From positions 78,114-142,113 of the forward strand of contig JAHCBA010000002.1 in NCBI GenBank assembly GCA_019634625.1: 64,000 nucleotides of DNA. The letters run 5' to 3'. Shown here one piece after another: positions 3,687 to 26,840 of this stretch; within the stretch, counting starts at the first letter, position 1, and every line of letters begins with the position of its first letter. This DNA comes from Verrucomicrobiia bacterium. Lineage in GTDB: Bacteria; Verrucomicrobiota; Verrucomicrobiia; Limisphaerales; CAIMTB01. The translations under genes were made by a program, and so were the position numbers. Under the pieces are notes generated by a model. That model searched no databases, was not told the DNA's origin, and was given only the letters and a program-made list of their open reading frames with translations.

Positions 3687-3833
3687 GGCAGGTTGATCTT
3701 GAGTTGAACCTTTGTCCGGGACAACACAGCTGCCCGGAAGCCTTCCCAAGCCCCCCGTGTGTTCTCGTCCTCGAACCCAAAGGCACACCTTTTCAAGCGC
3801 CGCCCGGACCTCCCATTCCCCGTGGGAACTGGA

Positions 3834-3945: not shown

Positions 3946-4045
3946 AGGAACAGCCTTGCCCGCCGCTCCCGAATCGCCTATCCCGATTCCCATCCCGCTC
4001 CAATCCCCGGTCCTCTGGTGCGACCCGGTCCCTTCCCCTTTCCCC

Positions 4046-6811: not shown

Positions 6812-6828
6812 CCGATCCCCGCCCCGCC

Positions 6829-8294: not shown

Positions 8295-8401
8295 GTGCAT
8301 CCCCGACGTGTGGGTGCCGAGGCAACCCATCGGAGGGACGAGCTCCGCGAGTCCTCAATCCAACGCTCCACACTCCTGCGGCCTCGCGGAGCTCGTCCCG
8401 G
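8295..8401 (-). mobile_element. Family-B nested-hairpin MITE-like element, copy B1 (right part divergent)
   Basis: GTGCATCCCCGACGTGTGGGTGCCGAGG....GGAGGGACGAGCTCCGCGAGTCCTCAATCCAACGCTCCACACTCCTGCGGCCTCGCGGAGCTCGTCCC aligns by eye with the reverse complement of copies B2/B5. Confidence 0.6.
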
Positions 8402-9574: not shown

Positions 9575-11704
9575 TCACTCCTGCAACCCGTAGCGGCGCA
9601 TCAGCTCCGGACTCATCCCTGGCCCGTCCCCCCCGAAGCGCTGCATCAGCTCCGGACTCATCGCCGCCCCGTCCCGCGGCGTGCCCGGTCGGGCGGGCCG
9701 CACCGGCAGGGGTGGGATGTCCCCGTGCGACGGTACGTCCGCCGGTTCCCCCTCGGCCACCGCTTCGGCCCGCAACGCTTCTCTCAGGGATTCCGCGACG
9801 TTCCCGCGCTGGATGATCAACCGGCGATTCCGCGGCCCGAGCGGCAGTGGCATGGTCCGCCGATACGCGTTGCCACCGCCCGACGACGACGGCGCATCCA
9901 AGGTCACCGCGATCTGGCCCACCTGGAGGTCCCGGTCGATTCCGTGCTGCTCCAGCAGCAACCGCTCCGCCGGACTGAGCCTGGCCTCAAGATCGATCTG
10001 CTGCCGCGTCAGTCCCAGGGCCCGCCCCTCGGCCATCGATCGCGATGCCCATCCCGCCATACCGGCCACTCCGCCCCACAATGCCACCAGAAGTCCGAGA
10101 CACGCGGCTCCCTGCCGTGGCAATCGCCTCCCGGCGTCGCCCGGCCGTACGAAGTTGCGCCACGCGAAGAACACTCCCAGTGCCGCCGGCACTGCCCCCG
10201 TCACCAGCATTAATTGGGGCACCCTGTCCCTCCATCCCCTACCCCGCCTCGCCATCGCCTCCCATGCGGCAGCGTCCAGACGCTCCGCCCGCATCCGCCA
10301 CGCCTCCGGATCCGCGGATCGTTCGATCATCAGCAGCCCGGTCGCTTCCTGGGCGGCTGCGGACCCGAACCGGGCCGTCAGGAAGGCCGCCGCGACGACG
10401 AAGGCCAGGACTCCCATGGCCGCAATCACCGCCCGCACCGGGTGGCCGGTTCCCGACGACATCAGCAGCGCCGTCACAAACACCACCCCCATGCCAATCG
10501 TCACGGCAACCACGTGCCGATGGATGCCGGTTTGACCGTCCCTCGCGGACGCCATCCAGGAAGCGGCCAGAATCACGACCAGCACTGGCAACGCGGCAAT
10601 CGCCATCTTGATCCACCACTGCGATCCGGGCGCAACCGGTTGGAGGCGCTGGCCGTCCGTCACGCCCAGACGTCGTTCCTCGGCGAACGCCGTCGCTCCC
10701 GCGAGCAGCACCACCAGTCCGAGCAGCGATCCCCCTCCCACGGCGAGCGCCTGCCCCATGTCAGATCCCGCGTACGCCAATCCTCCCGGCATCGCCAGCG
10801 CCACGCCCGCCAGGAGCAACCACCAGGTCGCCGCCTGCAGTCGAAGTTCCTTCCGCGCCAGCGTCGCCCACACCGGTGCCCTGCCGCCGTCTCCGATCCC
10901 GGCCAGCGTCCGAAGCCGCGGCAACCCGAGGAGCCCTTCCCCCGTCTCGCCTTCATCCTTCGCCTCCATCCGCCTCCAGCGGCGCCACGCCCCCAAACCC
11001 GTCCCCACGACATAGAGACCGAGCAGCAGCACCGGGACCAAGGTCTCGGAACCGAGCAAGGCAACCACGACGGCGAGGCCCAGCATTGGAATCGCCAGCG
11101 AGAAGACCAGGCCCGATAGCAACCCCCGGGTCAGAAGGGTCCAGTACGGCGTCGTGAACCCGGCCAACACGGCACTCATCCCCATCCCGACAACCAACCC
11201 CGCCCAGGCAGCGCCGAGGATTTCGGCCGTCCCCGCCGCCACCGCCCAATGCACCCCCAGTCCGACCGCCAGCACCGTCATCTTGGTCCGCCACCATGCC
11301 GCCCTGTCCACCGGCTGAGCCAGCATGCCCGCCAGGGTCCGTTGCTGGAACTCAGTCCCGAACGGGATCGCCGCCATCAACGCGCAGGTCGCCGCAAACA
11401 GCCAGGGCAGCAGCGTCATCGCCTCCTCGCCCAGCACCAGGTAGGGCATCTGCATCGCGAACAGGGACGCCAGCCAGGCCGGACGCAATTGATCCACCTC
11501 CTTGCGAACCGCCCACGGCAGCCGGACGACCAGCGCCGGCAATCCGAAGGCCAGCACGATCCCGACGGTCAAGAGCGACGCCCAACCGCCCCCGACCCGT
11601 TCCCCACCGGCCAGCACCGGCATCACCGGCAACAACAATGCCAGCCACCACGACGACGGCCGTACCAGTCCGGGCAGAGCAAGCGAATGGTTCATAACGT
11701 TCAT
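9575..11704 (-). CDS. ABC-2-type permease-like polytopic membrane protein (paralogue 2) with soluble C-terminal region
   Basis: 709 aa with many TM segments. Paralogous to 11701..13812 (shared N-terminal pattern and ...SPAE...RG.L.E.LREALR.E tail). ATGA overlap with the upstream gene (11701-11704). Confidence 0.7.
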   Translation of the reverse strand: MNVMNHSLALPGLVRPSSWWLALLLPVMPVLAGGERVGGGWASLLTVGIVLAFGLPALVVRLPWAVRKEVDQLRPAWLASLFAMQMPYLVLGEEAMTLLPWLFAATCALMAAIPFGTEFQQRTLAGMLAQPVDRAAWWRTKMTVLAVGLGVHWAVAAGTAEILGAAWAGLVVGMGMSAVLAGFTTPYWTLLTRGLLSGLVFSLAIPMLGLAVVVALLGSETLVPVLLLGLYVVGTGLGAWRRWRRMEAKDEGETGEGLLGLPRLRTLAGIGDGGRAPVWATLARKELRLQAATWWLLLAGVALAMPGGLAYAGSDMGQALAVGGGSLLGLVVLLAGATAFAEERRLGVTDGQRLQPVAPGSQWWIKMAIAALPVLVVILAASWMASARDGQTGIHRHVVAVTIGMGVVFVTALLMSSGTGHPVRAVIAAMGVLAFVVAAAFLTARFGSAAAQEATGLLMIERSADPEAWRMRAERLDAAAWEAMARRGRGWRDRVPQLMLVTGAVPAALGVFFAWRNFVRPGDAGRRLPRQGAACLGLLVALWGGVAGMAGWASRSMAEGRALGLTRQQIDLEARLSPAERLLLEQHGIDRDLQVGQIAVTLDAPSSSGGGNAYRRTMPLPLGPRNRRLIIQRGNVAESLREALRAEAVAEGEPADVPSHGDIPPLPVRPARPGTPRDGAAMSPELMQRFGGDGPGMSPELMRRYGLQE

Positions 11705-13812
11705 TCCCGGGGTTGAAAGGTCGGCATCTCGCCCCGAAGAGCCTCACGAAGGTCCTCCGGCAGTTCGCCCCGCTCGATGATCGTCGCCCGGTCCGCAGCG
11801 GACAGCGGCAACTGAAACGTCCGCCGACCGCCGAACATTTCCCTCCGCGGATCGGGCGCCTCTTCCTCCAACGGGTCGGACGCCGGTCGCAGCAACACCG
11901 GAACGATCCTCGCCGGGAAGTTCAACATGCTGCGTGGCACCTGCACGTTGGGTTGGCGCTGCTTGAGGTCCCGGTAGTACTCCCCCCACATGACCTCCCT
12001 CAATCGCACTTCCGCCGGCGACAAGGTCCGCTCAACGGCGAGCGCCCATCGGACATGGGTGAGCACCTGCCCACGCTCCCACCACCCGAGCGCCCCAACC
12101 GCCAACAGCACCCCGAGCAAGCACGTCGCCGTCAGGCCCAGCAACCACCAGGCGCCATCGCGCACCCATCGGAGGGGTGCCGACGCCGGACAGAAGAAGT
12201 TCCTTCGGGCCATCGCCAAGGCCAGCAGGATCGGGATCGCGGCAAGCAGGGGGATTCCCCGGATCCACTGCGGGGAGGAACGGGCTTCGAAGGGCGAAGA
12301 GTCCGGAGGCACGGGTGGCAGGGACGCCGCCAGGGCTCGCCACCGTTCCGGTCGTGTCCCGAGGGATGCCCACAGCCACTCCCGGACTTGCTCCGTTCCG
12401 CCCGCGAACAGCGCCACCGCTCCGACCGCCAGCACGCCGGCCATGGCGATCAGGACCAGGCTTCCGAGCAGGGCCCGCAACGCGTTGGCGGCACCCGATG
12501 ACACCAGCAACGCCACCGGGACCGCTCCGATGGCCAGTCCGGTCAGGATCAAAGGCATGGGAAACGCCAGGTGCCGCACAACTCCGTACACCGCGAAACA
12601 CGCCGGCACGCCCAACGCCAACGCCAGGACCCCCTTCACCCGCCACTGCCAGACCCGGGACACCGGAAGCAACAACTGGCCATCCAATGTCCCCAACCGT
12701 CGCTCCTCGGCGATCGCCGTGGCGCCCGCCAGCAGCATCGTCATCCCCGCCAGCAGAAGGACCAGTCCCTGCAGGCCCTGCGCCGCCATCCAGCCCGACG
12801 GCATCCCCTGCAGCACCACCCAGCACACCGCCATCACCCCGAGCGTCGCCAGGGTGACCGTCTGCAACCGCACTTCCTTGATCGCCAGCGTCACCAACCT
12901 GCCCCGGAGTCCATCGGCACCGGCGGAGCGCATGGCCCCGGGCTGCCGGGCGCTCCGGACGGTTCCACCCGCCCCCAGAAACACCCCCGCCGTCTCACCG
13001 GCCCCCGCGTCCGGTGCCTCCATCGTCTGCCACCGCCGCGCCGTCGCCACGGTCGCCGCCCCCGCATACGCCAGCAGCGCTCCCCAACCGAGAGCCGTCA
13101 TCCAACCGCTCCACATCCGCTCGCTTTCGGCGGGGCTGCCCCCCCACACGAGGATCCCAATGGCGGCGACGGCCACCGCCAGGACCGGGGCCGCCAGGGA
13201 GAACACGGCCCCCGCCAGCAGACTTCGCGTCAGCAACGTCCAGTACGGCGTCGCGCCCCACGCCACCGCTACGATTCCCAGCAACCCCACGGGAACACCC
13301 CCCGGAAGCGGCCGGCCCAGCGCGGCGGCGGACAGCATTGTCACCGCCCACAACAGCAGCAGCGCGGCTCCCGACACTCCCATCTTCACCCGCCACACCT
13401 CCCAGCGGGACACCGGCTGACTCAGCAGTCCCGGCAGGGTGCGATGCAGGAACTCGATGCCGAACGGCATGGCCGCCATCAGCACCGCTCCCCCCACGAG
13501 CAGCGGGACGGCCAGCCCACCCCCTTCATCCGCCGGCAGCAGCGCCACCTGCGCCGCCAGCACCGACCCCAGCCACGCCGTGCGCAGCACGGTCACATCC
13601 TTCCGCAACAGGCAGCCCGCCCGTTCGAGAACGGCGGGCAACCCCCACGTCAGCACCGCTCCCATCCCCGCCAGCACAGCCAGCCATATCCATTCCGCAC
13701 CGCGCTCCCCCGCGGCGCCCGCCAACCCGCCCAGCCATGGCAGCACCGGCAGCAGCAACGGCGCGTAACTCAACGGATGCCGCCCCACCCGGGGCATCGC
13801 GATCGCATGCAT
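11701..13812 (-). CDS. ABC-2-type permease-like polytopic membrane protein (paralogue 1)
   Basis: 703-aa polytopic protein that starts 16 nt after the ABC ATPase gene. Same architecture as 9575..11704. Confidence 0.7.
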   Translation of the reverse strand: MHAIAMPRVGRHPLSYAPLLLPVLPWLGGLAGAAGERGAEWIWLAVLAGMGAVLTWGLPAVLERAGCLLRKDVTVLRTAWLGSVLAAQVALLPADEGGGLAVPLLVGGAVLMAAMPFGIEFLHRTLPGLLSQPVSRWEVWRVKMGVSGAALLLLWAVTMLSAAALGRPLPGGVPVGLLGIVAVAWGATPYWTLLTRSLLAGAVFSLAAPVLAVAVAAIGILVWGGSPAESERMWSGWMTALGWGALLAYAGAATVATARRWQTMEAPDAGAGETAGVFLGAGGTVRSARQPGAMRSAGADGLRGRLVTLAIKEVRLQTVTLATLGVMAVCWVVLQGMPSGWMAAQGLQGLVLLLAGMTMLLAGATAIAEERRLGTLDGQLLLPVSRVWQWRVKGVLALALGVPACFAVYGVVRHLAFPMPLILTGLAIGAVPVALLVSSGAANALRALLGSLVLIAMAGVLAVGAVALFAGGTEQVREWLWASLGTRPERWRALAASLPPVPPDSSPFEARSSPQWIRGIPLLAAIPILLALAMARRNFFCPASAPLRWVRDGAWWLLGLTATCLLGVLLAVGALGWWERGQVLTHVRWALAVERTLSPAEVRLREVMWGEYYRDLKQRQPNVQVPRSMLNFPARIVPVLLRPASDPLEEEAPDPRREMFGGRRTFQLPLSAADRATIIERGELPEDLREALRGEMPTFQPRE

Positions 13813-13828
13813 CGTGCGTTCCTCCAGG

Positions 13829-14719
13829 TTAACGGCTCGAGACCACGAAGATCTCCTCCAGCGTCAGGGCCTCGACCTCGACGCTCTCCGGCCCCAACCC
13901 CCGCAGTTCCTCCACCACCCGCTCGGTGGCGCCGTTGGTCACCAGTTCGATCTCGCGCCCCTGACGTTTCTGGCGCAACACGCCGTCGAGCGGCACGGAC
14001 GGCGCCTCCCCGGCGAACCGGGCCCGCACCTTCCGGAACTTCGCCCGCGCCTCGTCGGCCTCCAGCGACAACGTCGCCCGCCCGTCCTCGATCACCGTGA
14101 ACCGGTCGATCAACCCCTCGAACTCGGCGATCAGATGCGTCGAGACAAACACCGTCCGCCGCCCCGGATCGGCGTCCTGATAGGCCCCGATCACCGCCTC
14201 GATGAATTCCCGCCGCACGATCGGGTCCAGCCCCGACGTCGGCTCGTCCAGCACCAGCAGTTCCGGTTCGGCACAGATGGCAGAGATCAGCGCGAGCTGG
14301 GTGCGCTGCCCCTTCGACAGCCCGCTCACCGGCTTCCCCGCGTCCAGCCGGAAACGGTCCAGCAGATCCGCCTCGGTCGTCCGGTTCCAGTTCGTGCGGA
14401 AGGACGCCGCGTAGTCCAGCGCCTCGCGGGCGCTCATCCACGGGTAGAACGCCACCTGGTCCGGCACATACGCCAGGCGCCGCTTCACCTCGAGTTCCTG
14501 CCGGGCCGGGTCCAGCCCGAACACCCGCACCGTCCCGGCGTCGGGCCGCAGGAGGTTCAGCAGGCACTTGATGGTGGTGGTCTTGCCGGCGCCGTTCCGG
14601 CCGAAGAAGCCGTAACAGCTCCCGGCCGGCACCGTCAGGTCCAGTCCGTTCACCGCGTCCGTCCGGCCGAAACGCCGGGTCAGACCGCGAATCTCGATGG
14701 CAGGGGATTCCGCACTCAT
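13829..14719 (-). CDS. ABC transporter ATP-binding protein
   Basis: Walker A GRNGAGKTT, signature LSKGQRTQ, Walker B LLVLDEPTSGLD. Confidence 0.95.
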   Translation of the reverse strand: MSAESPAIEIRGLTRRFGRTDAVNGLDLTVPAGSCYGFFGRNGAGKTTTIKCLLNLLRPDAGTVRVFGLDPARQELEVKRRLAYVPDQVAFYPWMSAREALDYAASFRTNWNRTTEADLLDRFRLDAGKPVSGLSKGQRTQLALISAICAEPELLVLDEPTSGLDPIVRREFIEAVIGAYQDADPGRRTVFVSTHLIAEFEGLIDRFTVIEDGRATLSLEADEARAKFRKVRARFAGEAPSVPLDGVLRQKRQGREIELVTNGATERVVEELRGLGPESVEVEALTLEEIFVVSSR

Positions 14720-16739: not shown

Positions 16740-16897
16740 GTGCATTCCGGAGTTGTGGGTGAGGAGGGAACTCCGCTGAGGGGCGCTTCGGAGGGCCGAG
16801 TTCCACGAGGCCGCAACGGTGTGGAGCGTTGGGTTGAGGACTCGCAGAGCTCGTCCCTCCGATTCGCTTCCTTCTCACCCACAATTCCGGGATGCAC
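16740..16897 (+). mobile_element. Family-B nested-hairpin MITE-like element, full copy B2
   Basis: Outer inverted repeats are GTGCATTCCGGAGTTGTGGGTGAGGAGG / CCTTCTCACCCACAATTCCGGGATGCAC. The inner hairpin is CGGAGGGCCGAGTTCCACGAGGCC...GGACTCGCAGAGCTCGTCCCTCCG. Flanked by the direct repeat CTTCCAGCCCG (16729-16739 and 16900-16910). Confidence 0.7.
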
Positions 16898-17050: not shown

Positions 17051-18307
17051 ATGATTTCCACTCCGCGCAGTCGGTGCCCCTTCGGTGCCATTTTTGCCAG
17101 GTTCATTCATGGCCGCGACCGCAACTGTGAAGAGAGGCGGACGCAGTTGATTGATTTCGCCCAGCTCGCCTTGCAGGTCGAGTTCGCCACCATTCCGGTC
17201 TATCTGACCGGGATGTATTCCATCGCCGACAGGAGTTGCGCCGCCTATCAAACGCTGCGGTCGGTGGTGATGGAGGAGATGTTCCATGCCAATCTGGCGG
17301 CGAACCTGGTTGTGGCCCTCGGGGGCCGGCCACGCTTTACGGACGATGCCGCGCCCGTTTACCCGGGCTATCTGCCGCATGCCAATGAAGCCACCACGCC
17401 CAGGATCGGTCTCTTCCGGGCATCCGCCGAGGTCTTCAACAAGGTGTACGCAGCCATCGAAAGCCCGGCGCCGGGCGGTGCTCCCGCGCAGGATGACCGG
17501 TACGACAGCATCGCCCAGTTGTACGGGGCGCTCCGGGAGGCGATCGATGCTTACCCCGGCAATCCATTCGAGGTGTCCCCCGGGAAGTGCCGGGGCCGGC
17601 AGAGAACCGATATCTACCTCGGCAAATTCGGGGGACAGGTGGTCGAGGTGACTGACAAGGCCAGCGCCCTTCACGCCATTAAACAGATCGTCGAGCAGGG
17701 CGAAGGGATCGTACCGGGAGGGGAAAAGCCCCTGGTACCGGTCGAACCTTTCGGGGCCTACAACCATTACGGTCCACGCACCGATGGCACCTACGGTCCG
17801 ATCATCGGGACGCCCGAGGAAATGAGCCATTTCATGAAGTTCCGGCAGATTGCCTTCGCGACCACGACGTTTCCCGAGACGCTGCCCATTCTGTCGGACC
17901 CGAGCCTCGATCAGTTCAGCAACCCCGATGCGCGTCAGCTGGCCGAGGCTTTCAATCGAGCCTACAGCCTGATGCTGGTGAATTTCGAGAGGAGCTTTTC
18001 CAACGAGGGTGACCCATATTTCGGAATCGTTCTGCAACTCATGCACCGCGTGCTTCCGGGGCTGGCAGTGAGCCTGATGAACACACCGGCGCACGCCGGA
18101 GGGGACGCCTCGGTGGGCCCCAACGCGGCGCCCACCTGGACGTACCTGCCCATGGAGCGGAAGGAGGAGGATTGCGGGGAGTGCATCGAGGGCCTGGAAC
18201 GGCTGCTTTCCGGAGGGGCACCCGAGACCCCTTCCGCGCAGGCCCTGGCCCATGCCCTCGACGCCTGGCGGCATCTCGCCGCACCTCCCCTGACGTCTGC
18301 CACTTGA
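17051..18307 (+). CDS. Ferritin-like domain protein
   Basis: Internal ATG at 17051; the longer ORF start at 16892 lies inside the B2 element. LALQVEFATIPVYLTGMYSI and VMEEMFHANLAANLVVALGG resemble the uncharacterised ferritin-like family. The gene ends 12 nt before the LodA-like gene. Confidence 0.7.
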   Translation: MISTPRSRCPFGAIFARFIHGRDRNCEERRTQLIDFAQLALQVEFATIPVYLTGMYSIADRSCAAYQTLRSVVMEEMFHANLAANLVVALGGRPRFTDDAAPVYPGYLPHANEATTPRIGLFRASAEVFNKVYAAIESPAPGGAPAQDDRYDSIAQLYGALREAIDAYPGNPFEVSPGKCRGRQRTDIYLGKFGGQVVEVTDKASALHAIKQIVEQGEGIVPGGEKPLVPVEPFGAYNHYGPRTDGTYGPIIGTPEEMSHFMKFRQIAFATTTFPETLPILSDPSLDQFSNPDARQLAEAFNRAYSLMLVNFERSFSNEGDPYFGIVLQLMHRVLPGLAVSLMNTPAHAGGDASVGPNAAPTWTYLPMERKEEDCGECIEGLERLLSGGAPETPSAQALAHALDAWRHLAAPPLTSAT

Positions 18308-18319
18308 ACCGACACAGCC

Positions 18320-20194
18320 ATGAATCGCTACCGGATCTACCCGCCCATTGCCGTAGCACGCGTGGGCGATGCCCCATGCCAGTACTACATCGGACCCGAG
18401 ACCTACCGCGGCCTTCCAATCAATCCCGATGGTCGCCCGTTTACGGAGAAAGACTTCCGCGACCCGGACGGCCGGTTGTGCCGGCAGGCGGCGCGTTTCC
18501 GTATCTTCCGCGATACGGACAAGGGTCCGGAGGAGGTGACACTCAAAACGCCCGATGTCCACAGCATCGAATGGACCGTGCACGTCGCCAACAAGAAGGC
18601 GAGCTGGTACGAGTTCAAAACCAACGCCGGAGAACACGGCTACGCCAGCAATCATCCCCTCCGGAACGCTCACGTGACCGATCGGTCGAGCCTGATCATC
18701 GATCCCGGCCCGCGGAAGATCAGCGGCGCGAAAGCCGGACCGCAGGCATTCGATCGGAAAAGCGTCCCGCCCGAATACCAGGGCGCCACGTTTCCTCCCG
18801 CATTGCTCTATCAATGGCCCGAAGAGACCAAGGAGAACAAGGACACGAAGCCGGTTGAGCATCCGCCCATTTCCATCGACACCCTGGGCGAGTTGCGCAC
18901 CGATGCGGAGGGTCGCCTGATCTTCCTGGGCGGACTGGGCAAGGCCGGATCCAGCCGTTCCGTCCCCGCCATCGCCGAGTACGCCAATAACGACGACTGG
19001 TGGGACGACACCTCGGACGGCCCGCTCCGGGCGGTGGTGACGCTCCACGATGGCACCCGCATCGACGCCGGGACGGCGTGGGTGATCGTGGCTCCGCCCG
19101 CCTACGCGCCACAGATCCCCAACCTCGTCACCCTGTGGGACACGATCTTCGACACCGCCGTCCGCAGCGGACACCACCCGGCTATCTGGTCCGGGGGATT
19201 CTGGTGCCAGGGGCCCGAGGGTTACCGCCCCAACTTTGTCACCGAGATCGCGCCATTGATCGAGCGCGCCACGCTCTACCCCTGGGTCGCCGCCATTCCC
19301 CCGAAGGCCCACCGCTTCGACATGACCCTGCTCGGCCAGGTCCCGGTACCCGGCCAGCCGGACTCGGCGGGCGGCCTGCGGCGATGGATCCTTGGGGTCC
19401 TGCGCCCGCCCAGCGCGGAGAACCAGATCGTCGGCCCGGCGGGCCGCACCATGATGCCGTTCCTGGCCGGTGACAACGCGCTCAACCTGGACTCACTCAC
19501 TTCCAAGTATCTTCGCCTCACGGACACCCAGTACTTCTTCCTCCAGCAGTGGGCCGAAGGTTGGTTCGTCAATGAGCCTGATCGAACCCATGCAGTCGAT
19601 GCATTGACGCGGGCCGTGCTCGACAACTGCGTGGGTGGCGCCTTTTCGCCCGGCATCGAGATGACCTGGATCTCGCGCAACCCGGACATCTACCAGCCCG
19701 ACGACCCGATGCGCATCAATGCGGAACTGCCGGCCGAGGGTCCGCTGCGGCTCACGTTCGATCCCGCCCACATGCAGCCAGGTGATTTGAGCCGGTACAT
19801 GGCCGTGCCCTGGCAGGCGGACTTCAACGAATGCTCGTCGCAACCCATCGACGGCCGGGTCCTGTGGTGGTGGCCGGCTCAGCGACCCGAGTACGTCTAT
19901 CTGGATCCCACTCGACCGCGCCCCCCGCATCCCATGGCGGTGAAGGCGGAACCCGTTCCCACCGAGACGACCGGAGGACAGGTCGCCTGGGTCGGCACCG
20001 ACTTCGACCAGATCCGTTCCGACTATATCAGCTTCGCCGACGACCTTGACATGGTGCGGTACTGGTCCGGTTTGGGATTTGTCATGAAGAAGGAAATACC
20101 GGACCCGGCCAGGGCGCCTTCCGGGAAACACGACAAGGACATACGATACGTCGAGGTGGCGCGCACCCTGCCGCGACCGTTTTTCCCGAAGTAG
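18320..20194 (+). CDS. LodA/GoxA-like quinoprotein amino-acid oxidase (putative cysteine tryptophylquinone enzyme)
   Basis: N-terminus YRIYPPIAVARVGDAP matches the characteristic LodA-like start. PWQADFNECSSQPIDGRVLWWWPAQRP carries candidate CTQ Cys/Trp residues. Followed by a LodB-like flavoprotein. Confidence 0.75.
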   Translation: MNRYRIYPPIAVARVGDAPCQYYIGPETYRGLPINPDGRPFTEKDFRDPDGRLCRQAARFRIFRDTDKGPEEVTLKTPDVHSIEWTVHVANKKASWYEFKTNAGEHGYASNHPLRNAHVTDRSSLIIDPGPRKISGAKAGPQAFDRKSVPPEYQGATFPPALLYQWPEETKENKDTKPVEHPPISIDTLGELRTDAEGRLIFLGGLGKAGSSRSVPAIAEYANNDDWWDDTSDGPLRAVVTLHDGTRIDAGTAWVIVAPPAYAPQIPNLVTLWDTIFDTAVRSGHHPAIWSGGFWCQGPEGYRPNFVTEIAPLIERATLYPWVAAIPPKAHRFDMTLLGQVPVPGQPDSAGGLRRWILGVLRPPSAENQIVGPAGRTMMPFLAGDNALNLDSLTSKYLRLTDTQYFFLQQWAEGWFVNEPDRTHAVDALTRAVLDNCVGGAFSPGIEMTWISRNPDIYQPDDPMRINAELPAEGPLRLTFDPAHMQPGDLSRYMAVPWQADFNECSSQPIDGRVLWWWPAQRPEYVYLDPTRPRPPHPMAVKAEPVPTETTGGQVAWVGTDFDQIRSDYISFADDLDMVRYWSGLGFVMKKEIPDPARAPSGKHDKDIRYVEVARTLPRPFFPK

Positions 20195-20205
20195 CCCGGT
20201 CCACC

Positions 20206-21390
20206 ATGAGCCCGCCGGCGGCTACCGGCCGCGCCCGACTCCTGGACGTGCTGATTGTCGGGGCGGGCCCGGCAGGTTGCGCCACGGCCCTGGCCTTGCT
20301 TCGGGCGGGCGTTCAGGACGTCGCCCTCGTGACGCCGCCCGCTTCAACCGCCTGGCGACTCAGCGAGTCGGCCACGCCCGATGTGCCCGCCCTCCTCGCG
20401 CAATTGGGAGTCCGGATGCCTCCGGGGCACCACCCGTATCTGGGCAACCTCTCGGCCTGGGGAGAACCGATGAGACAGGACGACTTCGTCCGTCGCGGCC
20501 ATCCCCCCGGCTGGTTGGTGGACCGGAAGCGGTTCGACGACCAGTTGCGGGAAGCCACCGTCGCCGCGGGATCAGAACTCCTCCAGCCCTTCCGATTGCG
20601 GGAGGCAGTGCGCATCAGGAACGGCTGGAGCGTGACGTTGCAGCCGGTCGCTTCCACGCGTCCACCGGGCCCGCCTGTCACGCTGCAAACCCGTTTGCTG
20701 GTGGATGCCTCGGGACGCCGCGCCGCTCTCGCGCGAGGCCAGCTCGGGGCCAGACGTCAACGCATCGATGATCAGGTGGCCCTTGCCGCCCGAATTCCGG
20801 GGGCCCGACCGGCACGGATCGACGACTTGCTGGCCGGCCGCGTTCTGGTCGAAGCGGTGCCCTGCGGGTGGTGGTACGCCTCCGCCCCGCCGGATGGCCC
20901 GATGATGCTAAGCCTGATGACCGACATGGATCTGGCCCGGAATCTGCGGACACCCACTGCATGGCGGGAAGCCCTGGACCACACCCAGGTTCTCCAAGCC
21001 CTCGGCGTCCCGCCATCCGACACCGGTCAGGCACCCCCCGCGATCCGGACGTTCGCCGCGCAAAGCGGTTGTCTGGATCGTATCGCCGGGCCCGGCTGGC
21101 TCGCCGTCGGGGACGCCCTGATGAGCCTCGACCCACTCACTTCATCGGGCCTGTCCGGCGCGTTGCGCGATGGCATCGCGGCTGCGTCCGAGGTGTTGCT
21201 GCCCTGGCTCGAAGGCGCCTCACCGGGCACCGCCGGAAGGGCCTGGGGCAGACGTGCCAACCATGTCTGGCAGCGCTTTCTGGTCGAGCGTCGAGCCCGC
21301 TACGCCATGGTGTCCGACTGGCGCACGTCCCGGTACTGGCGGCGACGCCAGAGCGAATACGAGGCCAGTGCATCCCGGATTCTTCGGTAG
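20206..21390 (+). CDS. LodB-like FAD-dependent oxidoreductase (cofactor-maturation flavoprotein)
   Basis: LDVLIVGAGPAGCATALAL is an FAD GxGxxG fold, with a halogenase/monooxygenase-like GD motif in WLAVGDALMSLDPLTSSG. Positioned directly after the LodA-like gene. The last ~7 codons and the stop lie in element B3. Confidence 0.75.
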   Translation: MSPPAATGRARLLDVLIVGAGPAGCATALALLRAGVQDVALVTPPASTAWRLSESATPDVPALLAQLGVRMPPGHHPYLGNLSAWGEPMRQDDFVRRGHPPGWLVDRKRFDDQLREATVAAGSELLQPFRLREAVRIRNGWSVTLQPVASTRPPGPPVTLQTRLLVDASGRRAALARGQLGARRQRIDDQVALAARIPGARPARIDDLLAGRVLVEAVPCGWWYASAPPDGPMMLSLMTDMDLARNLRTPTAWREALDHTQVLQALGVPPSDTGQAPPAIRTFAAQSGCLDRIAGPGWLAVGDALMSLDPLTSSGLSGALRDGIAAASEVLLPWLEGASPGTAGRAWGRRANHVWQRFLVERRARYAMVSDWRTSRYWRRRQSEYEASASRILR

Positions 21391-21492
21391 AGTTGCGAAC
21401 TTCGCGAAGCGTCGCTTCGGAGGGCCGGGTGCCACGAGGCCGCAACCGTGTGGAGCGTTGGGTTGAGGACTCGTGGAACCCGGCCCTCCGAA
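21368..21492 (+). mobile_element. Family-B element, copy B3 (second outer arm missing or degenerate)
   Basis: GTGCATCCCGGATTCTTCGG...GCGAACTTCGCGAAGCG...CTTCGGAGGGCCGGGTGCCACGAGGCCGCAACCGTGTGGAGCGTTGGGTTGAGGACTCGTGGAACCCGGCCCTCCGAAG. Confidence 0.6.
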
Positions 21493-21652
21493 GTAAAGCG
21501 GAGAGGTGGGATCGGATGGACCGTTGGGTGTACACGCTTCAGCGTGAGCCTCCCAAATCCGCCCCGACACGCCAAAGCGTCTGACGTTTGGCCATTTGAC
21601 TGGCGAACCGGCGGGCCCCAAAGCGGCCCATCGGTTGACGCAGGGAAATCAG

Positions 21653-21965: not shown

Positions 21966-22286
21966 ATGCGCCCCTTGGATCTACAGGTTGTCGGCAACGA
22001 ACTGGCCATCCGCTGGGAGGATGGCACGGAGAGCTTCATCCCCCTGGAAACCCTGCGCCGCCACTGCCCGTGTGCGAGCTGCGGCGGGGAACGCGACATC
22101 TTCGGCAACGTCTATCGCGGTCCCGAGCGACCCCTGACCCCGGCCGGGATGACCCTCGTCCGCCTGGAACCAGTGGGCGGCTACGCCGTGCAGCCGATCT
22201 GGGGCGACGGCCACAACACCGGCCTGTTCAGCTACGAGTACCTCCGTCGCCTGGGCGCCATGGCGTCATCGGGGTCAGATCTCTGA
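21966..22286 (+). CDS. DUF971 (gamma-butyrobetaine hydroxylase-like N-terminal domain) protein
   Basis: Internal ATG of ORF 21894. LAIRWEDGTESFIPLETLRRHCPCASCGGE and YAVQPIWGDGHNTGLFSYEYLR are typical DUF971 blocks. The last 5 codons and the stop come from element A1. Confidence 0.8.
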   Translation: MRPLDLQVVGNELAIRWEDGTESFIPLETLRRHCPCASCGGERDIFGNVYRGPERPLTPAGMTLVRLEPVGGYAVQPIWGDGHNTGLFSYEYLRRLGAMASSGSDL

Positions 22287-22351
22287 ATTTGACAATCTTG
22301 CCCCGCAGGGCGCGGTGCGACGGCCAATGTCAAAATCAGGGATCTGACCCC
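22271..22351. repeat. Family-A ~82-bp palindromic element, copy A1
   Basis: Left arm GGGGTCAGATCTCTGAATTTGACA, right arm TGTCAAAATCAGGGATCTGACCCC, core ..CCCCGCAGGGCGCGGTGCGACGGCC.. Confidence 0.85.
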
Positions 22352-22424
22352 GGGAGGCTTTCGTCCTTCCGCCGCAGCGACCCGCCATGCTAGCGTTGTT
22401 AGCACAACGGAGGACGCCATCGCC

Positions 22425-22661
22425 ATGCCACAGCTTCTGGTCAGACAGATTGAGGAGAAGGTCGTTCGAAAGCTCAAGGAGCGGGCCGGAAGGCATGGGG
22501 TCTCGATGGAGGAGGAGCACCGCCGAATCCTGCGCGAGGCCCTGCTCGGCTCGTCGGTGAAGGGCCGGTCGTTCAAGGACCACCTGCTCGCCATGCCCAA
22601 CGTGGGGGATGACGAGGACTTTTCCCGCGGGCCCCAGATCGAGCGGCCCGTTGAGCTATGA
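22425..22661 (+). CDS. FitA/VapB-type (RHH, plasmid-stability-like) antitoxin
   Basis: MPQLLVRQIEEKVVRKLKERAGRHGVSMEEEHRRILREAL is the Arc/RHH-like antitoxin pattern. There is a 4-nt overlap with the PIN gene. Confidence 0.8.
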   Translation: MPQLLVRQIEEKVVRKLKERAGRHGVSMEEEHRRILREALLGSSVKGRSFKDHLLAMPNVGDDEDFSRGPQIERPVEL

Positions 22662-23092
22662 GCGGCTTTCTGCTTGATACGAACCTCCTGAGCGAACTGC
22701 GCAAGGAGCAGCGTTGCGATGCGGGAGTGCGTCGATGGGTCGAAGGCACCTCCGCCGAAGCGATGTTTGTCAGTGTCGTGGTGCTCGGCGAGATCAGGCG
22801 GGGGGTCGAGCGAATCCGCCTGCGCGACCTCAAGCAGGCTCGGGCATTGGAGAAGTGGCTTCATGGCATCCCCACGGTGTTTTCGGACCGCGTGTTGCAC
22901 GTGGACGAGCGCGTCGCGGACCAGTGGGGACGCCTCGGCTCGCGCCAACCTGTACCGCCCGTCGACGCACTGTTGGCTGCGACGGCCCTGGTTCACGATC
23001 TGACGGTCGTCACCCGGGATGCGGATGGTTTTCGCAACACCGGGGCACGGGTGCTGAATCCGTTCACGTCAGGCTCAGATCTCCGAATTTGA
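22658..23092 (+). CDS. vapC: PIN-domain toxin (VapC/FitB type)
   Basis: FLLDTNLLSELRK, VVLGEIRRGV and DALLAATALVHDLTVVTRDADGF. The C-terminal SGSDLRI and the stop are encoded by element A2. Confidence 0.85.
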   Translation: MSGFLLDTNLLSELRKEQRCDAGVRRWVEGTSAEAMFVSVVVLGEIRRGVERIRLRDLKQARALEKWLHGIPTVFSDRVLHVDERVADQWGRLGSRQPVPPVDALLAATALVHDLTVVTRDADGFRNTGARVLNPFTSGSDLRI

Positions 23093-23152
23093 CCATCGGG
23101 ACCCGCAGGGCGCGGCGGGACGGCGAAATGTCAAATTCAGAGACTTGACCCC
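23071..23152. repeat. Family-A palindromic element, copy A2
   Basis: AGGCTCAGATCTCCGAATTTGACC ... core CCCGCAGGGCGCGGCGGGACGGCG ... TGTCAAATTCAGAGACTTGACCCC. Confidence 0.85.
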
Positions 23153-23205
23153 GAGAGGGGAAGATTTGTCCGGTTTGGCGCGCGACCGGCAGTATTCCGG
23201 GCGAG

Positions 23206-24834
23206 ATGGATACCGTGGTCGTTGACCAGGAATTGGTGGACTCCTATGTGCGGAACGGTTCGGAAGAGGCGTTTCGGGCATTGGTCACACGGCACGTGAA
23301 TCTTGTCTATGCGGCTGCCCTGCGGCAGGTCGGGGATTCGAATCTGGCGGAGGAGATCGTCCAGAATGTCTTTGTCGCCCTGGCGCGCAAGGCTCCCCGC
23401 CTGGTGGGGCATGCGACATTGGCGGGGTGGTTGCACCGGACCGCAATCCTCGAGGCGAAGGCAGTCATTCGTGCGGAGTTGCGTCGACGTCGGCGGGAGG
23501 AGGCGGCGGTTCGGTTGGCATCGGTTGTTCCCCAGGCCGGCGATCCGGCCGATCCGGACCTGGTTCCGTTACTGGACGAGGCATTGTTGCACCTTCGGGA
23601 GAACGACCGGTTGGCGGTGGTGTTGCGGTACCTGGAGAAGAGGAGCCTTCGGGAAGTGGGGGCCGTTCTGGGTGTGGACGAAGACGCCGCCCGAAAGCGG
23701 GTGTCCCGGGCCCTTGAGCGGCTGAGCACGTATTTTCGGTCGCAGGGATGGGCGGTGCCTGTGGCGAAGAGTGTTGCGGTCCTGGGTCAGGCGTCGGTGC
23801 AGGCCGCGCCAGCCGAATTGGCGGTGGCCGCCACCACTGCAGGTCTTTCTGCGGGAAACGTGGCGGGCGGACTGAACCTGTTTCTACTCAATCTGATGAA
23901 CCTTCCAAAAATCCCGGTGATGGTCGGATGTGGGCTTCTTGTGGTGGTTCCGTGGGTGTGGCAGGAGCGCTCCTTGGCCGCACTCGAAGGGGCGGAGCAG
24001 CGGTGGTTGACGGAACAACGCACGTTGGCGAGCCAGTGGAACGCGGTGACAGGGGAAAGCCGGCAGTTGCGTGCCGCCATTGACAGGGAGCGACGCCACC
24101 TGCAAGAGGCCGAGTTCAGGGTGTCCGAGATGCATGGGCATCTCGCCTCTCTGGCGCCTGCCGAACCTTACCGCTGGGACGATACCTCCCCGCTGGCCCG
24201 GGTGCCCAAGGACCTGGTGCGCCGGATGGGTGTGGATGCGCTGGCGAACCTGCGGGGTGACCTCTCGCACGACATGATGGCAGTCCTTCAGTTCACTCCC
24301 GGGGAAGCAACGGCCATTCAGGAGGCGGTGCATCAGTTTCTGGCCGGTTATCACCAGGCTTTGGCGACCTCGACCCGTCCGGTGGATCCGTCGGCGGAGG
24401 AAACCGCTTGGGGTGGGGCGACCGGCGTTCGGGTGTTTGAAGTGGACGATGTGGGGGACGCGATACGGGTTCTGCGAGGCCGCCTGATGGACGAATTGAA
24501 GTTCGTCCTGGATGAAGAGCGTTATGAACTCCTGCTTCATGGCCTGGAAAATCGGATTCCCGTCGATGACGAGGATCGCGGAGTGAACTCGGGCATGCTG
24601 GTCCTTCCAGGGAAGCATCGGGTGCGGGTGGCGCCGGTGGATGGATGGGATCCGGAGCATCCCATCCTTCGGTGGGGGCACTCGGGCTTGCAGTACACCA
24701 TGTCGGGAATCCGCCATGTCGAGGATGTTCCCGACTCTTTCAGATCTCACCTTCAGGATTGGATCGATGCGGCACGTCTCGGACCGCACGCGCCAGGAAC
24801 CCCATCGGTGCAGGCGGTGCCCCCAGGGGAATGA
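23206..24834 (+). CDS. ECF-type sigma-70 factor fused to a TM helix and a ~300-aa C-terminal domain
   Basis: Region 2 is FRALVTRHVNLVYAAALRQVGDSNLAEEIVQNVFVAL. Region 4 is NDRLAVVLRYLEKRSLREVGAVLGVDEDAARKRVSRALERL. A TM segment VMVGCGLLVVVPWVW follows, then coiled-coil and globular parts. Confidence 0.85.
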   Translation: MDTVVVDQELVDSYVRNGSEEAFRALVTRHVNLVYAAALRQVGDSNLAEEIVQNVFVALARKAPRLVGHATLAGWLHRTAILEAKAVIRAELRRRRREEAAVRLASVVPQAGDPADPDLVPLLDEALLHLRENDRLAVVLRYLEKRSLREVGAVLGVDEDAARKRVSRALERLSTYFRSQGWAVPVAKSVAVLGQASVQAAPAELAVAATTAGLSAGNVAGGLNLFLLNLMNLPKIPVMVGCGLLVVVPWVWQERSLAALEGAEQRWLTEQRTLASQWNAVTGESRQLRAAIDRERRHLQEAEFRVSEMHGHLASLAPAEPYRWDDTSPLARVPKDLVRRMGVDALANLRGDLSHDMMAVLQFTPGEATAIQEAVHQFLAGYHQALATSTRPVDPSAEETAWGGATGVRVFEVDDVGDAIRVLRGRLMDELKFVLDEERYELLLHGLENRIPVDDEDRGVNSGMLVLPGKHRVRVAPVDGWDPEHPILRWGHSGLQYTMSGIRHVEDVPDSFRSHLQDWIDAARLGPHAPGTPSVQAVPPGE

Positions 24835-24870: not shown

Positions 24871-25755
24871 ATGAAGCCCAACCCGTATCTCCTCGGAGCA
24901 ATTCTGCTGCTGGGGGTGTGGGGACTGATTCGTTGCTGGCGGGTCGCCGAAGCGCGAGAAAGGTGGGAGCAATCCAACCGGCCTCGGGAAGAGCAGCTTG
25001 CGGCAACGCGAAGCGGTTTGGCGGAGGAGAAGGAACGGCTCGAGATTCTGCGTCGGGAATACTCGGAGGTTCGTCAGGCTCGGCAGTACGTGACGGCCAG
25101 AGCGGCAGGACTCGCGGGAGCGATGCATGAGACTGTCCAGGCGACGACATGGAACCAGGCTCCCGCACAATGGCCGGCCTGGGAACCGGACTCACCCTTC
25201 ATCTGGTTGTCGAAGGACACCCTGGCCCGCCTGCATCCGAGCGGTTTGAACCCCGACGGATCCCTGCATCCCGATGTGGCGGCCGTGATGACCTTGGCGC
25301 CGGAGCGTTTGGAATCGTTGAACCGGACGTTGAAGGGTCTCATGCAGGAATTCCGGGCGGCCAAGGCGGCTCGATCGCATCCCATCGAGGAACATCCGGA
25401 CAAGCATCTCGATCAGCCCGGGCGCAAATGGACGATTCAGGTGGAGCCCATGGGGGAACTGGGCCAGACACTCCAGCAGCAGTTTCGGGACGCGCTCCAG
25501 GCGCATCTCGGGGAGCAAAGGATGGGAATCCTTCTGGAAGCCTCCGAAGGCTGGCTAAGTCAGCATTTCGACGCGACGGCGACGGAGCCCCTGCTCATCT
25601 CGGTATTGAGAACCGAGGAGGGCCAGACTTCCGTGGTGTTTCGCCGGGGCACCAGTCACCACAGCGTGTGGGGCGACATCGCGTTGGGAGATTACATTCC
25701 CGCCCACATCCTCCCGTTGTTCGATCCGATCCTGAACCCGGACTCCTCCGAGTGA
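24871..25755 (+). CDS. Membrane-anchored hypothetical protein, paralogous to the C-terminal domain of the upstream sigma factor
   Basis: N-terminal TM helix LLGAILLLGVWGLI, then coiled coil. WEPDSPFIWLSKDTLARL...DVAAVMTLAPERLESL parallels WDDTSPLARVPKDLVRRM...DMMAVLQFTPGEATAI in 23206..24834. Confidence 0.65.
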   Translation: MKPNPYLLGAILLLGVWGLIRCWRVAEARERWEQSNRPREEQLAATRSGLAEEKERLEILRREYSEVRQARQYVTARAAGLAGAMHETVQATTWNQAPAQWPAWEPDSPFIWLSKDTLARLHPSGLNPDGSLHPDVAAVMTLAPERLESLNRTLKGLMQEFRAAKAARSHPIEEHPDKHLDQPGRKWTIQVEPMGELGQTLQQQFRDALQAHLGEQRMGILLEASEGWLSQHFDATATEPLLISVLRTEEGQTSVVFRRGTSHHSVWGDIALGDYIPAHILPLFDPILNPDSSE

Positions 25756-25831: not shown

Positions 25832-25983
25832 GTGCATCCCGGAGTCGTGGTTGAGGAGGCAGCGAATTGGAGGGACGAACTCCGCGAGTTCTGACCCCAA
25901 CGCTCCCCACCGTTGCGGCCTCGTGGAACTCGGCGCTCCCCGCCGACGCTTCAAGAAGCCGGCACCTCTCCCCAAGTATCCAC
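25832..25983 (-). mobile_element. Family-B element, full copy B4 (inverted orientation)
   Basis: By eye it aligns end to end with the reverse complement of B5: GTGCATCCCGGAGTCGTGGTTGAGGAGGCAGCGAATTGGAGGGACGAACTCCGCGAG...GCGGCCTCGTGGAACTCGGCGCTCC...CACCTCTCCCCAAGTATCCAC. Confidence 0.7.
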
Positions 25984-26041: not shown

Positions 26042-26308
26042 ATGGTGCGTACCACCCTCACCCTCGATCCGGAAGTCGCCGACCGGTTGAAGCAGGAAGC
26101 CGCCTTGGGAAAGCGCTCTTTCAAGGTCATCGTCAATGAAGCGCTGCGAAAGGGGCTGGGCATGGAGGCGCCGCGGCGCGCGCCTCGATTCCGCGTCCAG
26201 CCCCACTCCTCCCGCCTGCAACCCGGCGTGGATCCGACCCGCCTGAATCAACTCGTGGATGAACTCGATGTGGAGGCCTTCGTGGCGAAGCAAGGACCCC
26301 GGACATGA
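26042..26308 (+). CDS. RHH/CopG-like antitoxin of a VapBC pair
   Basis: MVRTTLTLDPEVADRLKQEAALGKRSFKVIVNEALRKGL. The ORF-track start is 26027 and I prefer the ATG at 26042. ATGA-type overlap with the PIN gene. Confidence 0.75.
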   Translation: MVRTTLTLDPEVADRLKQEAALGKRSFKVIVNEALRKGLGMEAPRRAPRFRVQPHSSRLQPGVDPTRLNQLVDELDVEAFVAKQGPRT

Positions 26309-26742
26309 TCATTCCCGACGTCAATCTCCTCATCTACGCGTACAACGATCAGGCTCCGCAACACCTGCCGGCGAAGGAATGGTGGGAGAATCTGCTGAAC
26401 GGTCAGAGGCCGGTCGGGCTCCCTTGGATCACCATCAGCGGTTTCATCCGGCTCATCACTCATCCCCGAATCCTGGTTACCCCCCTTGATGTTCCGTCCA
26501 CCGTCCGCCACGTACGCGCGTGGCTGGCCCAACCCCCGGTCCGGGTCGTGTACCCCGGCTCCCGTTTCGAGCGACTATTCATGGACTATCTGATCCAGCT
26601 CGGAACGGCCGCCAATCTGACAACCGACGCCCAACTCGCCGCGCTTGCCGTGGAACATCAGGCCGAACTGCACAGCTCCGACCATGATTTCGCGCGATTC
26701 GACGGTCTTCGTTGGCTGAACCCATTGAAGGCCGGGGCCTGA
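26305..26742 (+). CDS. vapC: PIN-domain toxin (VapC family)
   Basis: MIIPDVNLLIYAYN (PIN Asp), ISGFIRLITHP, TTDAQLAALAVEHQAELHSSDHDFARF. Confidence 0.85.
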   Translation: MIIPDVNLLIYAYNDQAPQHLPAKEWWENLLNGQRPVGLPWITISGFIRLITHPRILVTPLDVPSTVRHVRAWLAQPPVRVVYPGSRFERLFMDYLIQLGTAANLTTDAQLAALAVEHQAELHSSDHDFARFDGLRWLNPLKAGA

Positions 26743-26751
26743 CTGATCATC

Positions 26752-26833
26752 GGGGTCAGATCTCTGAATTTGACATTTGCGAGCCTTCAGATCTGCCAGG
26801 AAGGCAAAATGTCAAATTCAGAGATCTGACCCC
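26752..26833. repeat. Family-A palindromic element, copy A3 (near-perfect long hairpin)
   Basis: GGGGTCAGATCTCTGAATTTGACATTTGCGAGCCTTC-AGATCTGCCAG-GAAGGCAAAATGTCAAATTCAGAGATCTGACCCC. Starts 10 nt after the vapC stop. Confidence 0.9.
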
Positions 26834-26840
26834 GACGCCT

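Follow-up and report, generated by a model that had tools for sequence, protein, structure and literature searches.

A ferritin-like protein as a third component of group IC LodA-like quinoprotein oxidase units

Gene layout of the locus

The LodA-like quinoproteins are a large family whose characterized members are limited to lysine and glycine oxidases, and they draw interest for their H2O2-based antimicrobial and biofilm-dispersal activity and for biosensing. Here, we analyze three genes at positions 17051-21390 of a 64-kb stretch of DNA from a Verrucomicrobiae metagenome-assembled genome (MAG). The whole 64-kb stretch is called the window, and residues are numbered as in the window proteins. 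Gene 1 encodes a ferritin-like protein (fer), gene 2 encodes a LodA-like oxidase with a putative cysteine tryptophylquinone (CTQ) cofactor, and gene 3 encodes a LodB-like flavin adenine dinucleotide (FAD) monooxygenase. Our main finding is that the order fer-lodA-lodB recurs, in both directions of search, in most loci of one clade of LodA-like proteins in diverse bacteria. We argue, with more caution, that the ferritin-like protein may serve the oxidant side of the oxidase reaction.

All three open reading frames (ORFs) lie where the first-pass annotation, an earlier note made from the sequence alone, had placed them, with 12 nt between genes 1 and 2 and 11 nt between genes 2 and 3 (Table 1). 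The two strings that it quoted from the gene 2 product, MNRYRIYPPIAVARVGD and PWQADFNEC...LWWWPAQRP, are both present. Gene 1 starts with the ATG at 17051; the enclosing stop-to-stop ORF opens further upstream, and a start at 17051 matches the public annotation and the N-termini of homologs. Proteins identical to all three products are already public, from a Verrucomicrobiae MAG. No second copy of any gene of the trio was found in the window, and a scan for promoters and terminators gave nothing exceeding the shuffled expectation.

Table 1. Coordinates of the three genes, their candidate functional sites, and the bracketing repeats
Feature	Position	Strand	Basis
Gene 1, 418 aa, ferritin-like (PF12902, VioB/RebD C-terminal-domain type), predicted binding of two metal ions	17051..18307	+	Pfam, AlphaFold2 (AF2), VioB alignment
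Stretch with candidate metal-ligand codons	17180..17830	+	Conservation, E...ExxH...E...ExxH pattern
Candidate ligand codons E44, E76, H79, E137	17180-17182, 17276-17278, 17285-17287, 17459-17461	+	Conservation
Candidate ligand codons E218, E257, H260	17702-17704, 17819-17821, 17828-17830	+	Conservation
Subfamily-specific insert, residues 222-256 (...YNHYGPRTDGTYGPI...)	17714..17818	+	Alignments, AF2
Gene 2, 624-aa LodA-like (group IC) putative CTQ-dependent amine/amino-acid oxidase	18320..20194	+	LodA_N, LodA_C
Putative CTQ site: D501 (19820-19822), C505 (19832-19834), W518 (19871-19873)	19820..19873	+	Alignment to LodA/GoxA
Gene 3, 394-aa LodB/GoxB/QhpG-like FAD monooxygenase, putative CTQ maturase	20206..21390	+	NCBIfam, Pfam
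GAGPAG dinucleotide-binding motif, residues 19-24 of the gene 3 product	20260-20277	+	Motif
Dispersed palindromic intergenic repeat, upstream copy; marks the unit boundary, not part of the function	16740..16897	.	Repeat comparison
Same palindromic repeat, downstream copy, from the lodB-like stop codon; 33-nt hairpin 21415-21447 / 21461-21493	21362..21493	.	

The oxidase and its flavoprotein

Gene 2 is of the LodA/GoxA type, as the first-pass annotation had proposed. Specifically, its product strongly matches the Pfam models LodA_N (E 2e-67, 227.7 bits versus a gathering score of 26.3) and LodA_C (E 2.6e-37, 128.3 bits versus 25), and its best sequence matches in the PDB are the Marinomonas lysine epsilon-oxidase entries 3weu and 2ymw (E 3e-70), with GoxA next. 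The predicted fold agrees. The AF2 model, with a predicted local distance difference test (pLDDT) of 84 and a predicted template modeling (pTM) score of 0.90, aligns in Foldseek with LodA 3weu (E 3e-42, template modeling [TM] score 0.75) and with GoxA 6byw (E 1e-29, TM 0.66).

The Cys/Trp pair that had been suggested for the cofactor also holds up. Residues D501, C505, and W518 align with D512, C516, and W581 of LodA and with D678, C682, and W697 of P. luteoviolacea GoxA (PlGoxA), so that both the CTQ residues and the catalytic Asp have counterparts. The putative cofactor Trp is the third Trp of LWWWP (W518), and its partner is C505. Invariant in 80/80 related sequences are W498-Q-x-D501, C505, W517-W518, and P519. 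The Cys-to-Trp spacing is 13 residues in the gene 2 clade versus 17-37 in outgroups and 65 in LodA. Thus, the LodA segment that holds Lys530 is absent from the window protein. Judging by the alignments, the 13-residue Cys-Trp loop is a hallmark of the gene 2 clade.

The gene 2 product reaches neither the cut-off of the LodA equivalog NF038172 (344.7 bits versus 600) nor that of the GoxA equivalog NF038173 (235.5 bits versus 750). Thus, it is not an ortholog of the lysine or the glycine oxidase and should not be so named. On a neighbor-joining (NJ) tree, it falls in one clade with Chromobacterium proteins and a protein from the Litchfieldella/Halomonas anticariensis DSM 16096 lineage (L003). 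H. anticariensis and C. violaceum CV3268 are assigned to group IC in the supplement of Campillo-Brocal et al. 2015. Phylogenetic placement, a check that the first-pass annotation had put forward, hence puts the oxidase in the group IC clade of LodA-like proteins, an assignment that is made by our own NJ clustering rather than by those authors' tree.

The gene 3 product gives full-length NCBIfam matches to GoxB (E 2e-50, 171.9 bits) and LodB (E 1.8e-45, 155.6 bits), and it matches the QhpG model at E 2.4e-42. Together with the FAD motif, these models bear out the prediction of a LodB-like FAD gene directly behind the oxidase gene. The scores lie below the equivalog cut-off of 400 of the LodB/GoxB maturases (NF038171 / NF038174) and below the QhpG cut-off, and by these scores the product is a member of the family and no ortholog of either characterized maturase. 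Pfam recovers generic FAD-binding N-terminal motifs alone. In nearly all related loci, the LodA-like gene is followed directly by a LodB-like homolog. We note one metagenome contig, Ga0181519_10000415 (L106), whose ferritin-like and LodA-like genes are followed by 2.5 kb in which we detected no lodB-like gene.

Linkage of the three genes across bacteria

Searching with the oxidase alignment against one genome per species yielded 80 loci, with identities from 72 down to 33%. The ferritin-like gene was sought at these loci by tblastn and by hidden Markov model, and the two approaches agree. Within the window clade, a ferritin-like gene lies directly upstream of the LodA-like gene and on the same strand in 39/45 informative loci. 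Among outgroup LodA-like loci it is found upstream in 0/34, with at least 1.3 kb of upstream sequence present in 29. The fer-positive sequences are monophyletic on the NJ tree, and their hosts span Beta-, Gamma-, and Alphaproteobacteria, Actinobacteria, Cyanobacteria, Acidobacteria, Myxococcota, Planctomycetota, and Verrucomicrobia.

The reverse search gives the same picture. The ferritin-like alignment found 40 metagenome loci, 34 of which include downstream sequence, and in every one of these 34 a LodA-like gene adjoins the ferritin-like gene; most have lodB too. The fer stop codon and the lodA start are a median of 27 nt apart (n=71). The co-occurrence of the genes, which the first-pass annotation had named as a check on its suggested three-gene unit, is thus conserved both ways, and fer-lodA-lodB is very probably a conserved three-component unit. 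Pairwise distances correlate at r=0.94 for fer-LodA versus r=0.87 for LodA-LodB, a pair whose specific partnership is assumed by homology; all of these correlations are inflated by shared phylogeny.

All-against-all clustering of neighbors in the 45 loci revealed no conserved gene beyond the trio, save one restricted to some subclades. We note a fourth gene, encoding ~310-370 aa without a Pfam match, that immediately precedes fer in Chromobacterium, Oceanobacter, and Halomonas and in a Burkholderia lies behind lodB (L008:3722-4678, L016:3722-4678, L040:3717-4646, L011:3744-4646, L010:3562-4683, L004:3517-4617, L029:9019-9978). The window has no such gene. A Hormoscilla MAG (L044) shows partial matches to ferritin-like residues 306-412 and LodA-like residues 166-589, which could be a decaying copy or could reflect frameshift errors in the assembly.

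The ferritin-like partner

The first-pass annotation described gene 1 as ferritin-like. That description stands and can be made more exact: the protein carries a domain of the VioB/RebD C-terminal type. Specifically, residues 38-267 match PF12902 over model positions 2-219 of 221 (E 1.2e-38, 133.6 bits versus a gathering score of 22.3). The protein also weakly matches positions 665-813 of the VioB model, and its residues 47-364 are 26% identical (E 2e-13) to the C-terminal region of VioB; the VioB fragment used for this alignment, taken from a locus of Chromobacterium vaccinii, matches the VioB model with 1147 bits. The AF2 model is confident and helical (pLDDT 87.6, pTM 0.89). The sole solved relative is Caulobacter CC_0557 (3hl1), which a sequence search detects at E 4.6e-10 and Foldseek at E 2e-9.

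Conservation points to a metal site. E44, E75, E76, H79, E137, E218, E257, H260, and H332 are invariant in 114 close gene 1 homologs, and E44, E76, H79, E137, E218, and H260 (four Glu and two His) are still invariant out to distant PF12902 proteins and VioB. The family has one ExxH motif, and most members have a second (E257-x-x-H260). The six conserved Glu/His correspond to the ligand inventory of di-iron/di-manganese carboxylate proteins, and from the E...ExxH...E...ExxH pattern we infer that the gene 1 product binds two metal ions, probably iron.

Could this be an ordinary iron-storage or DNA-protecting ferritin/Dps, or simply an unrelated neighbor? The Pfam clan name and weak fold matches to Dps and bacterioferritin invite the former idea, but those matches are marginal: classical ferritins and Dps proteins appear in Foldseek at E 0.13 or weaker with a query-normalized TM of ~0.2, and sequence similarity to bacterioferritin reaches E 0.022. 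The gene 1 product has 418 aa with large insertions, versus a subunit of ~150-180 aa in classical ferritins, bacterioferritins, and Dps proteins, and bears no close structural similarity to them. Thus, it is no iron-storage cage. Size, fold scores, and the linkage in both directions, together with the 12-nt gap in the window, rule out an ordinary ferritin or Dps role, and we consider this explanation effectively refuted.

All LodA-linked gene 1 homologs carry, between two ligand-bearing segments, a nearly invariant insert (residues 222-256, YNHYGxRTDGTYGPI), which GMC-linked, fused, and VioB-type PF12902 proteins lack. AF2 gives residues 229-257 a pLDDT < 50 despite the high sequence conservation. 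Since it is conserved, disordered alone, and placed between the two segments, the insert is a good candidate for a docking or lid loop that contacts the oxidase. A conserved loop predicted to be disordered is a typical interaction segment, and as such it would equally suit a non-catalytic partner, that is, a structural subunit, a chaperone, or an export/anchoring factor of the oxidase. LodA leaves cells by a signal-peptide-independent route, and a Polyangia homolog is fused to four LamG/ConA-like domains, both of which would fit such a role. However, six potential metal ligands that stay invariant over very large distances argue for a working metal site, and we regard a non-catalytic partner as improbable.

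The Polyangia protein (L041:1259-5941, from a MAG) has ~1500 aa, with its four Laminin_G_3/ConA-like domains followed by the ferritin-like domain at the C-terminus; no obvious signal peptide follows the first Met. Similarly, P0287 (1277 aa) is a myxobacterial LodA-linked member with a C-terminal ferritin-like domain and Laminin_G_3/ConA-like domains.

The wider PF12902 family

An exhaustive PF12902 search gave 1,704 clusters (50% identity) at E<=1e-3, merely 48 of which reach E<=1e-30. Thus, the LodA-linked set is a small branch of a large family. In one type of operon elsewhere in the family, a GMC flavoprotein oxidoreductase gene is directly upstream of the PF12902 gene in 5/5 cases (P0288, P0307, P0344, P0432, P0481). 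The gene for a ~160-aa protein precedes each GMC gene, and one of these proteins shows weak similarity to the FAD-sorbitol dehydrogenase small subunit. Dehydrogenases of the sldSLC type have the gene order small subunit, large subunit, third gene, the third gene encoding a cytochrome c electron acceptor. The GMC-PF12902 operon has this same order, with the ferritin-like protein in the place of the cytochrome c subunit. The small subunit-GMC-PF12902 operon recurs at L122, L125, L127, L130, and L131-L133; the L130 GMC gene (2209-3930) is uncalled in the public annotation.

PF12902 also occurs fused to, or encoded beside, other redox proteins. P0349, next to a Na+/alanine symporter gene, joins the domain to a flavin amine oxidase, P0278 joins it to an animal-type heme peroxidase, and P0297 joins it to CDGSH and Fer4_19 iron-sulfur domains; P0285 has a DyP peroxidase gene as a neighbor. 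The CDGSH/Fer4_19 fusion appears in about half of the top 120 family-profile hits (P0391-P0509). This CDGSH [2Fe-2S]/Fer4_19 subfamily, of ~565-575 aa, has a rubrerythrin-like architecture, and none of its members is apparently characterized. Other PF12902 genes lie behind a Zn-alcohol dehydrogenase (Zn-ADH) gene, behind a tetrapyrrole methylase gene, and in an uninformative context.

Published work adds related cases. In Caulobacter, CC0556 (catalase-like) and CC0557 are among the genes downregulated by iron limitation and by fur mutation (PMC3751524). In other LodA-like groups, the N-terminus bears a catalase-like (PF00199) or iron-redox (PF14518) domain (PMC4417212), and in-situ peroxide removal has been suggested for a catalase-LodA-like fusion (2026 preprint). 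The common ground of the PF12902 partner enzymes is O2/H2O2 redox chemistry; they share no cofactor and no organic product.

These contexts bear on two further explanations of the partner. According to one, its substrate would be the organic compound that the oxidase makes, whether imine, aldehyde, or keto acid, and the reaction could be coupling, further oxidation, or deformylation. There is a parallel in VioB, RebD, and StaD, which take the imine from the amino-acid oxidases VioA, RebO, and StaO, and the homology of gene 1 to the VioB C-terminus makes the parallel closer. The flavin amine oxidase fusion fits too, as do GMC enzymes and the Zn-ADH neighbor, which make or use carbonyl compounds, and ferritin-like di-iron enzymes such as ADO and AurF/CmlI act on aldehydes or amines. 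However, the part of VioB that performs the coupling is unassigned, with no VioB structure as of 2021, and the iron-sulfur and peroxidase fusions have no common organic substrate. The products of the partner enzymes are chemically unrelated, and O2 or H2O2 is the one reactant that all can share. We see product processing as a lesser, though real, possibility.

According to the other, the partner is a second CTQ maturation factor, a di-iron oxygenase that performs the second oxygen insertion or the cross-link, much as MauG does in tryptophan tryptophylquinone (TTQ) biogenesis. The strict two-way linkage to one LodA-like clade and a co-evolution of fer with LodA that is tighter than that of LodA with LodB would suit such a factor, and the short 13-residue Cys-Trp loop, in which AF2 confidence is low, might need help in maturation. 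Against this, LodA and GoxA mature with LodB or GoxB alone, a fer-negative subclade keeps lodA-lodB and the same 13-residue loop, and PF12902 homologs pair with FAD and heme enzymes that have no tryptophylquinone. Given that the same domain accompanies FAD, CTQ, and heme enzymes, the role of the partner cannot be specific to CTQ biogenesis, and we judge a maturation role unlikely.

A possible role on the oxidant side

The mechanism that we propose runs as follows. By homology with LodA/LodB and GoxA/GoxB, the gene 3 product would hydroxylate Trp518 of the gene 2 product, and Trp518 would be cross-linked to Cys505, with Asp501 assisting, to yield CTQ. The mature gene 2 enzyme would carry out oxidative deamination of a primary amine or amino acid. 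The gene 1 product, a predicted four-helix bundle with two metal ions (probably iron), would dock to the oxidase through loop 222-256 and serve the oxidant half-reaction. It could do so by taking the electrons of reduced CTQ and reducing O2, or by consuming the H2O2 made by the oxidase as a catalase, peroxidase, or peroxygenase.

That the partner serves the oxidant side, as an electron or H2O2 sink and not as a CTQ maturase, is the explanation that we prefer among those considered, at about even odds. Of the partner roles that the first-pass annotation had offered, the PF12902 contexts favor oxygen or peroxide chemistry and disfavor CTQ-specific maturation. If the partner is such a sink, the physiological role of group IC oxidases would be read differently, and tryptophylquinone enzymes would gain a new kind of acceptor.

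A wider generalization is tentative, and we lean toward doubting it: PF12902 may be a widespread and so far unrecognized di-iron oxidant-side module that serves CTQ LodA-like, GMC, and flavin amine oxidase enzymes, including the fusions and the VioA-VioB/RebO-RebD pairs. If so, group IC oxidases would be two-component systems that pass electrons or H2O2 to a dedicated di-iron protein via the 222-256 loop rather than just setting peroxide free, and VioB, RebD, and StaD would use their C-terminal domain in the same way.

Several points weigh against an oxidant-side role. The C. violaceum group IC homolog is needed for biofilm H2O2 production, according to the passage of PMC4417212 that cites Mai-Prochnow et al. 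2008, and a net source of H2O2 is hard to square with a partner that scavenges peroxide efficiently or accepts electrons to form water. Six loci (L021, L022, L024, L026, L028, L043) keep lodA-lodB with no neighboring ferritin-like gene. All six group in one nested subclade, as expected from a single secondary loss or relocation; at least there, the partner is dispensable or encoded elsewhere. E257 is invariant in the close set only and not in distant PF12902 members. The distant contexts come from 12 hand-picked look-ups, several of which belong to one operon type. Finally, the VioA-VioB precedent is just as compatible with a partner that processes the product.

Sequence surrounding the unit

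Two copies of a palindromic repeat bracket the operon exactly (Table 1). The repeat is ~100-160 nt long, its copies are 77-88% identical and each holds a ~33-nt hairpin, and others lie in the window at 8295-8399, 25832-25981, 61602-61760, and 63778-63859. From its sequence, it looks like a repetitive extragenic palindromic (REP) element or a miniature inverted-repeat transposable element (MITE). We considered, and rejected, a mobile cassette bounded by a 102-nt direct repeat that flanks the trio exactly: the same palindromic element is present at at least six sites in the window. With copies throughout, it is a genome-wide repeat and not a cassette end.

The flanking genes of the window are unrelated to the trio. 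They encode a short-chain dehydrogenase/reductase (SDR), a flavin mononucleotide (FMN) reductase, a GntR regulator, an ATP-binding cassette (ABC) ATPase, a GBBH-like_N protein, PIN toxins, and an extracytoplasmic function (ECF) sigma factor. A second family of repeats, ~90 nt and built around the inverted motif GGGGTCAGATCTCTGAATTTGACA, occurs at 22257-22353, 23069-23154, and 26750-26847. The two PIN-domain (VapC-like) toxin genes (22658-23092 and 26305-26742) each have one copy right at the 3' end, and the remaining copy separates the GBBH-like_N gene from the first PIN gene. The ECF-type protein, at 23206-24834, has 542 aa, with sigma-70 regions 2 and 4 in the first ~175 residues and a C-terminal extension of ~365 residues without a Pfam match; a 294-aa ORF (24871-25755), also without a Pfam match, follows. 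Relative to the remainder of the window, positions 4001-8000 and 10001-14000 are unusually rich in G+C (0.69-0.71), and their GC skew is strongly negative (-0.22 to -0.33). Within 10001-14000, a very hydrophobic 703-aa ORF (11701-13812, - strand) sits beside the ABC ATPase and GntR genes.

Significance

The LodA/LodB part of the unit is a new member of a known, uncharacterized group. The first-pass annotation pointed to no characterization of the ferritin-like partner; we found none either, although a brief mention does exist: in the literature searched, the third gene comes up just in passing, as a remark on five fungal loci. As far as our searches show, neither gene 1 as a bacterial signature of group IC, nor its conserved ligand set, nor the homology to the whole VioB C-terminal domain, nor the oxidase-centered PF12902 contexts have been reported.

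Group IC thereby gains a defining feature, a third gene that extends from Proteobacteria to Actinobacteria, Cyanobacteria, Myxococcota, Planctomycetota, and Verrucomicrobia. This third gene may explain why the activity of group IC has so far not been found. It also offers a first functional handle on PF12902, including the uncharacterized C-terminal domain of VioB, RebD, and StaD, enzymes of violacein, rebeccamycin, and staurosporine biosynthesis.

Comparison with known systems

The window oxidase shares with LodA of Marinomonas mediterranea (3WEU/2YMW) the LodA_N and LodA_C domains, the fold, 28% identity, and the aligned CTQ Asp, Cys, and Trp, and in both systems a LodB-like FAD protein is encoded immediately downstream. 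However, the window protein is ~100 residues shorter, and lodAB has no third upstream gene. GoxA (6BYW) belongs to the same family, has the same cofactor residues, and likewise has a short Cys-Trp spacing (15 in PlGoxA), but it is just 18% identical to the window protein, and GoxAB has no ferritin-like partner.

The closest relatives are in group IC. Identity to the window protein is 63% for the H. anticariensis-lineage protein and 57-58% for Chromobacterium proteins. The window protein shares with members such as C. violaceum CV3268/CV3269 and H. anticariensis F567DRAFT_04168 both the clade and the three-gene layout; it differs in its host, a Verrucomicrobiae MAG. Campillo-Brocal et al. 2015 do not mention a ferritin-like neighbor for group IC, in which no enzyme has been characterized. 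According to PMC4417212, cultures of C. violaceum, a group IC organism, showed no lysine oxidase activity. Fungal group V lodA-like loci (Gymnopus, Hypholoma, Laccaria, and others) differ in being eukaryotic and in having the lodB-like gene in the opposite orientation, with no operon; the ten cluster representatives that we named include no fungal homolog, and all are bacterial.

Among PF12902 proteins, CC_0557 (3HL1) has the same domain and the only solved structure, and it aligns at a Foldseek TM of 0.76 on the target. It differs in its length (317 aa), its 24% identity, and its neighbor, which is a catalase-like protein and not a LodA-like oxidase.

We note that in C. vaccinii (L016:11977-13785, - strand), the violacein operon is convergent to fer-lodA-lodB. 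VioB starts ~3 kb past lodB, a distance that fits the size of vioE-vioD-vioC, and two PF12902 domains thus occur at this one locus, each neighboring an amino-acid oxidase. In two other Chromobacterium species and in Janthinobacterium, no VioB was found within the 12.9-13.8-kb loci, and we therefore rejected a functional link to violacein and take the adjacency to be coincidental.

VioB itself, at ~1000 aa, has a large N-terminal part that is absent from gene 1, and it lacks H332 and the 222-256 insert; moreover, VioA, RebO, and StaO are flavoproteins, whereas the window oxidase is a quinoprotein. Nonetheless, the VioA-VioB, RebO-RebD, and StaO-StaD pairs resemble the window unit in joining an H2O2-producing amino-acid oxidase to a protein with the same ferritin-like domain and the same six Glu/His.

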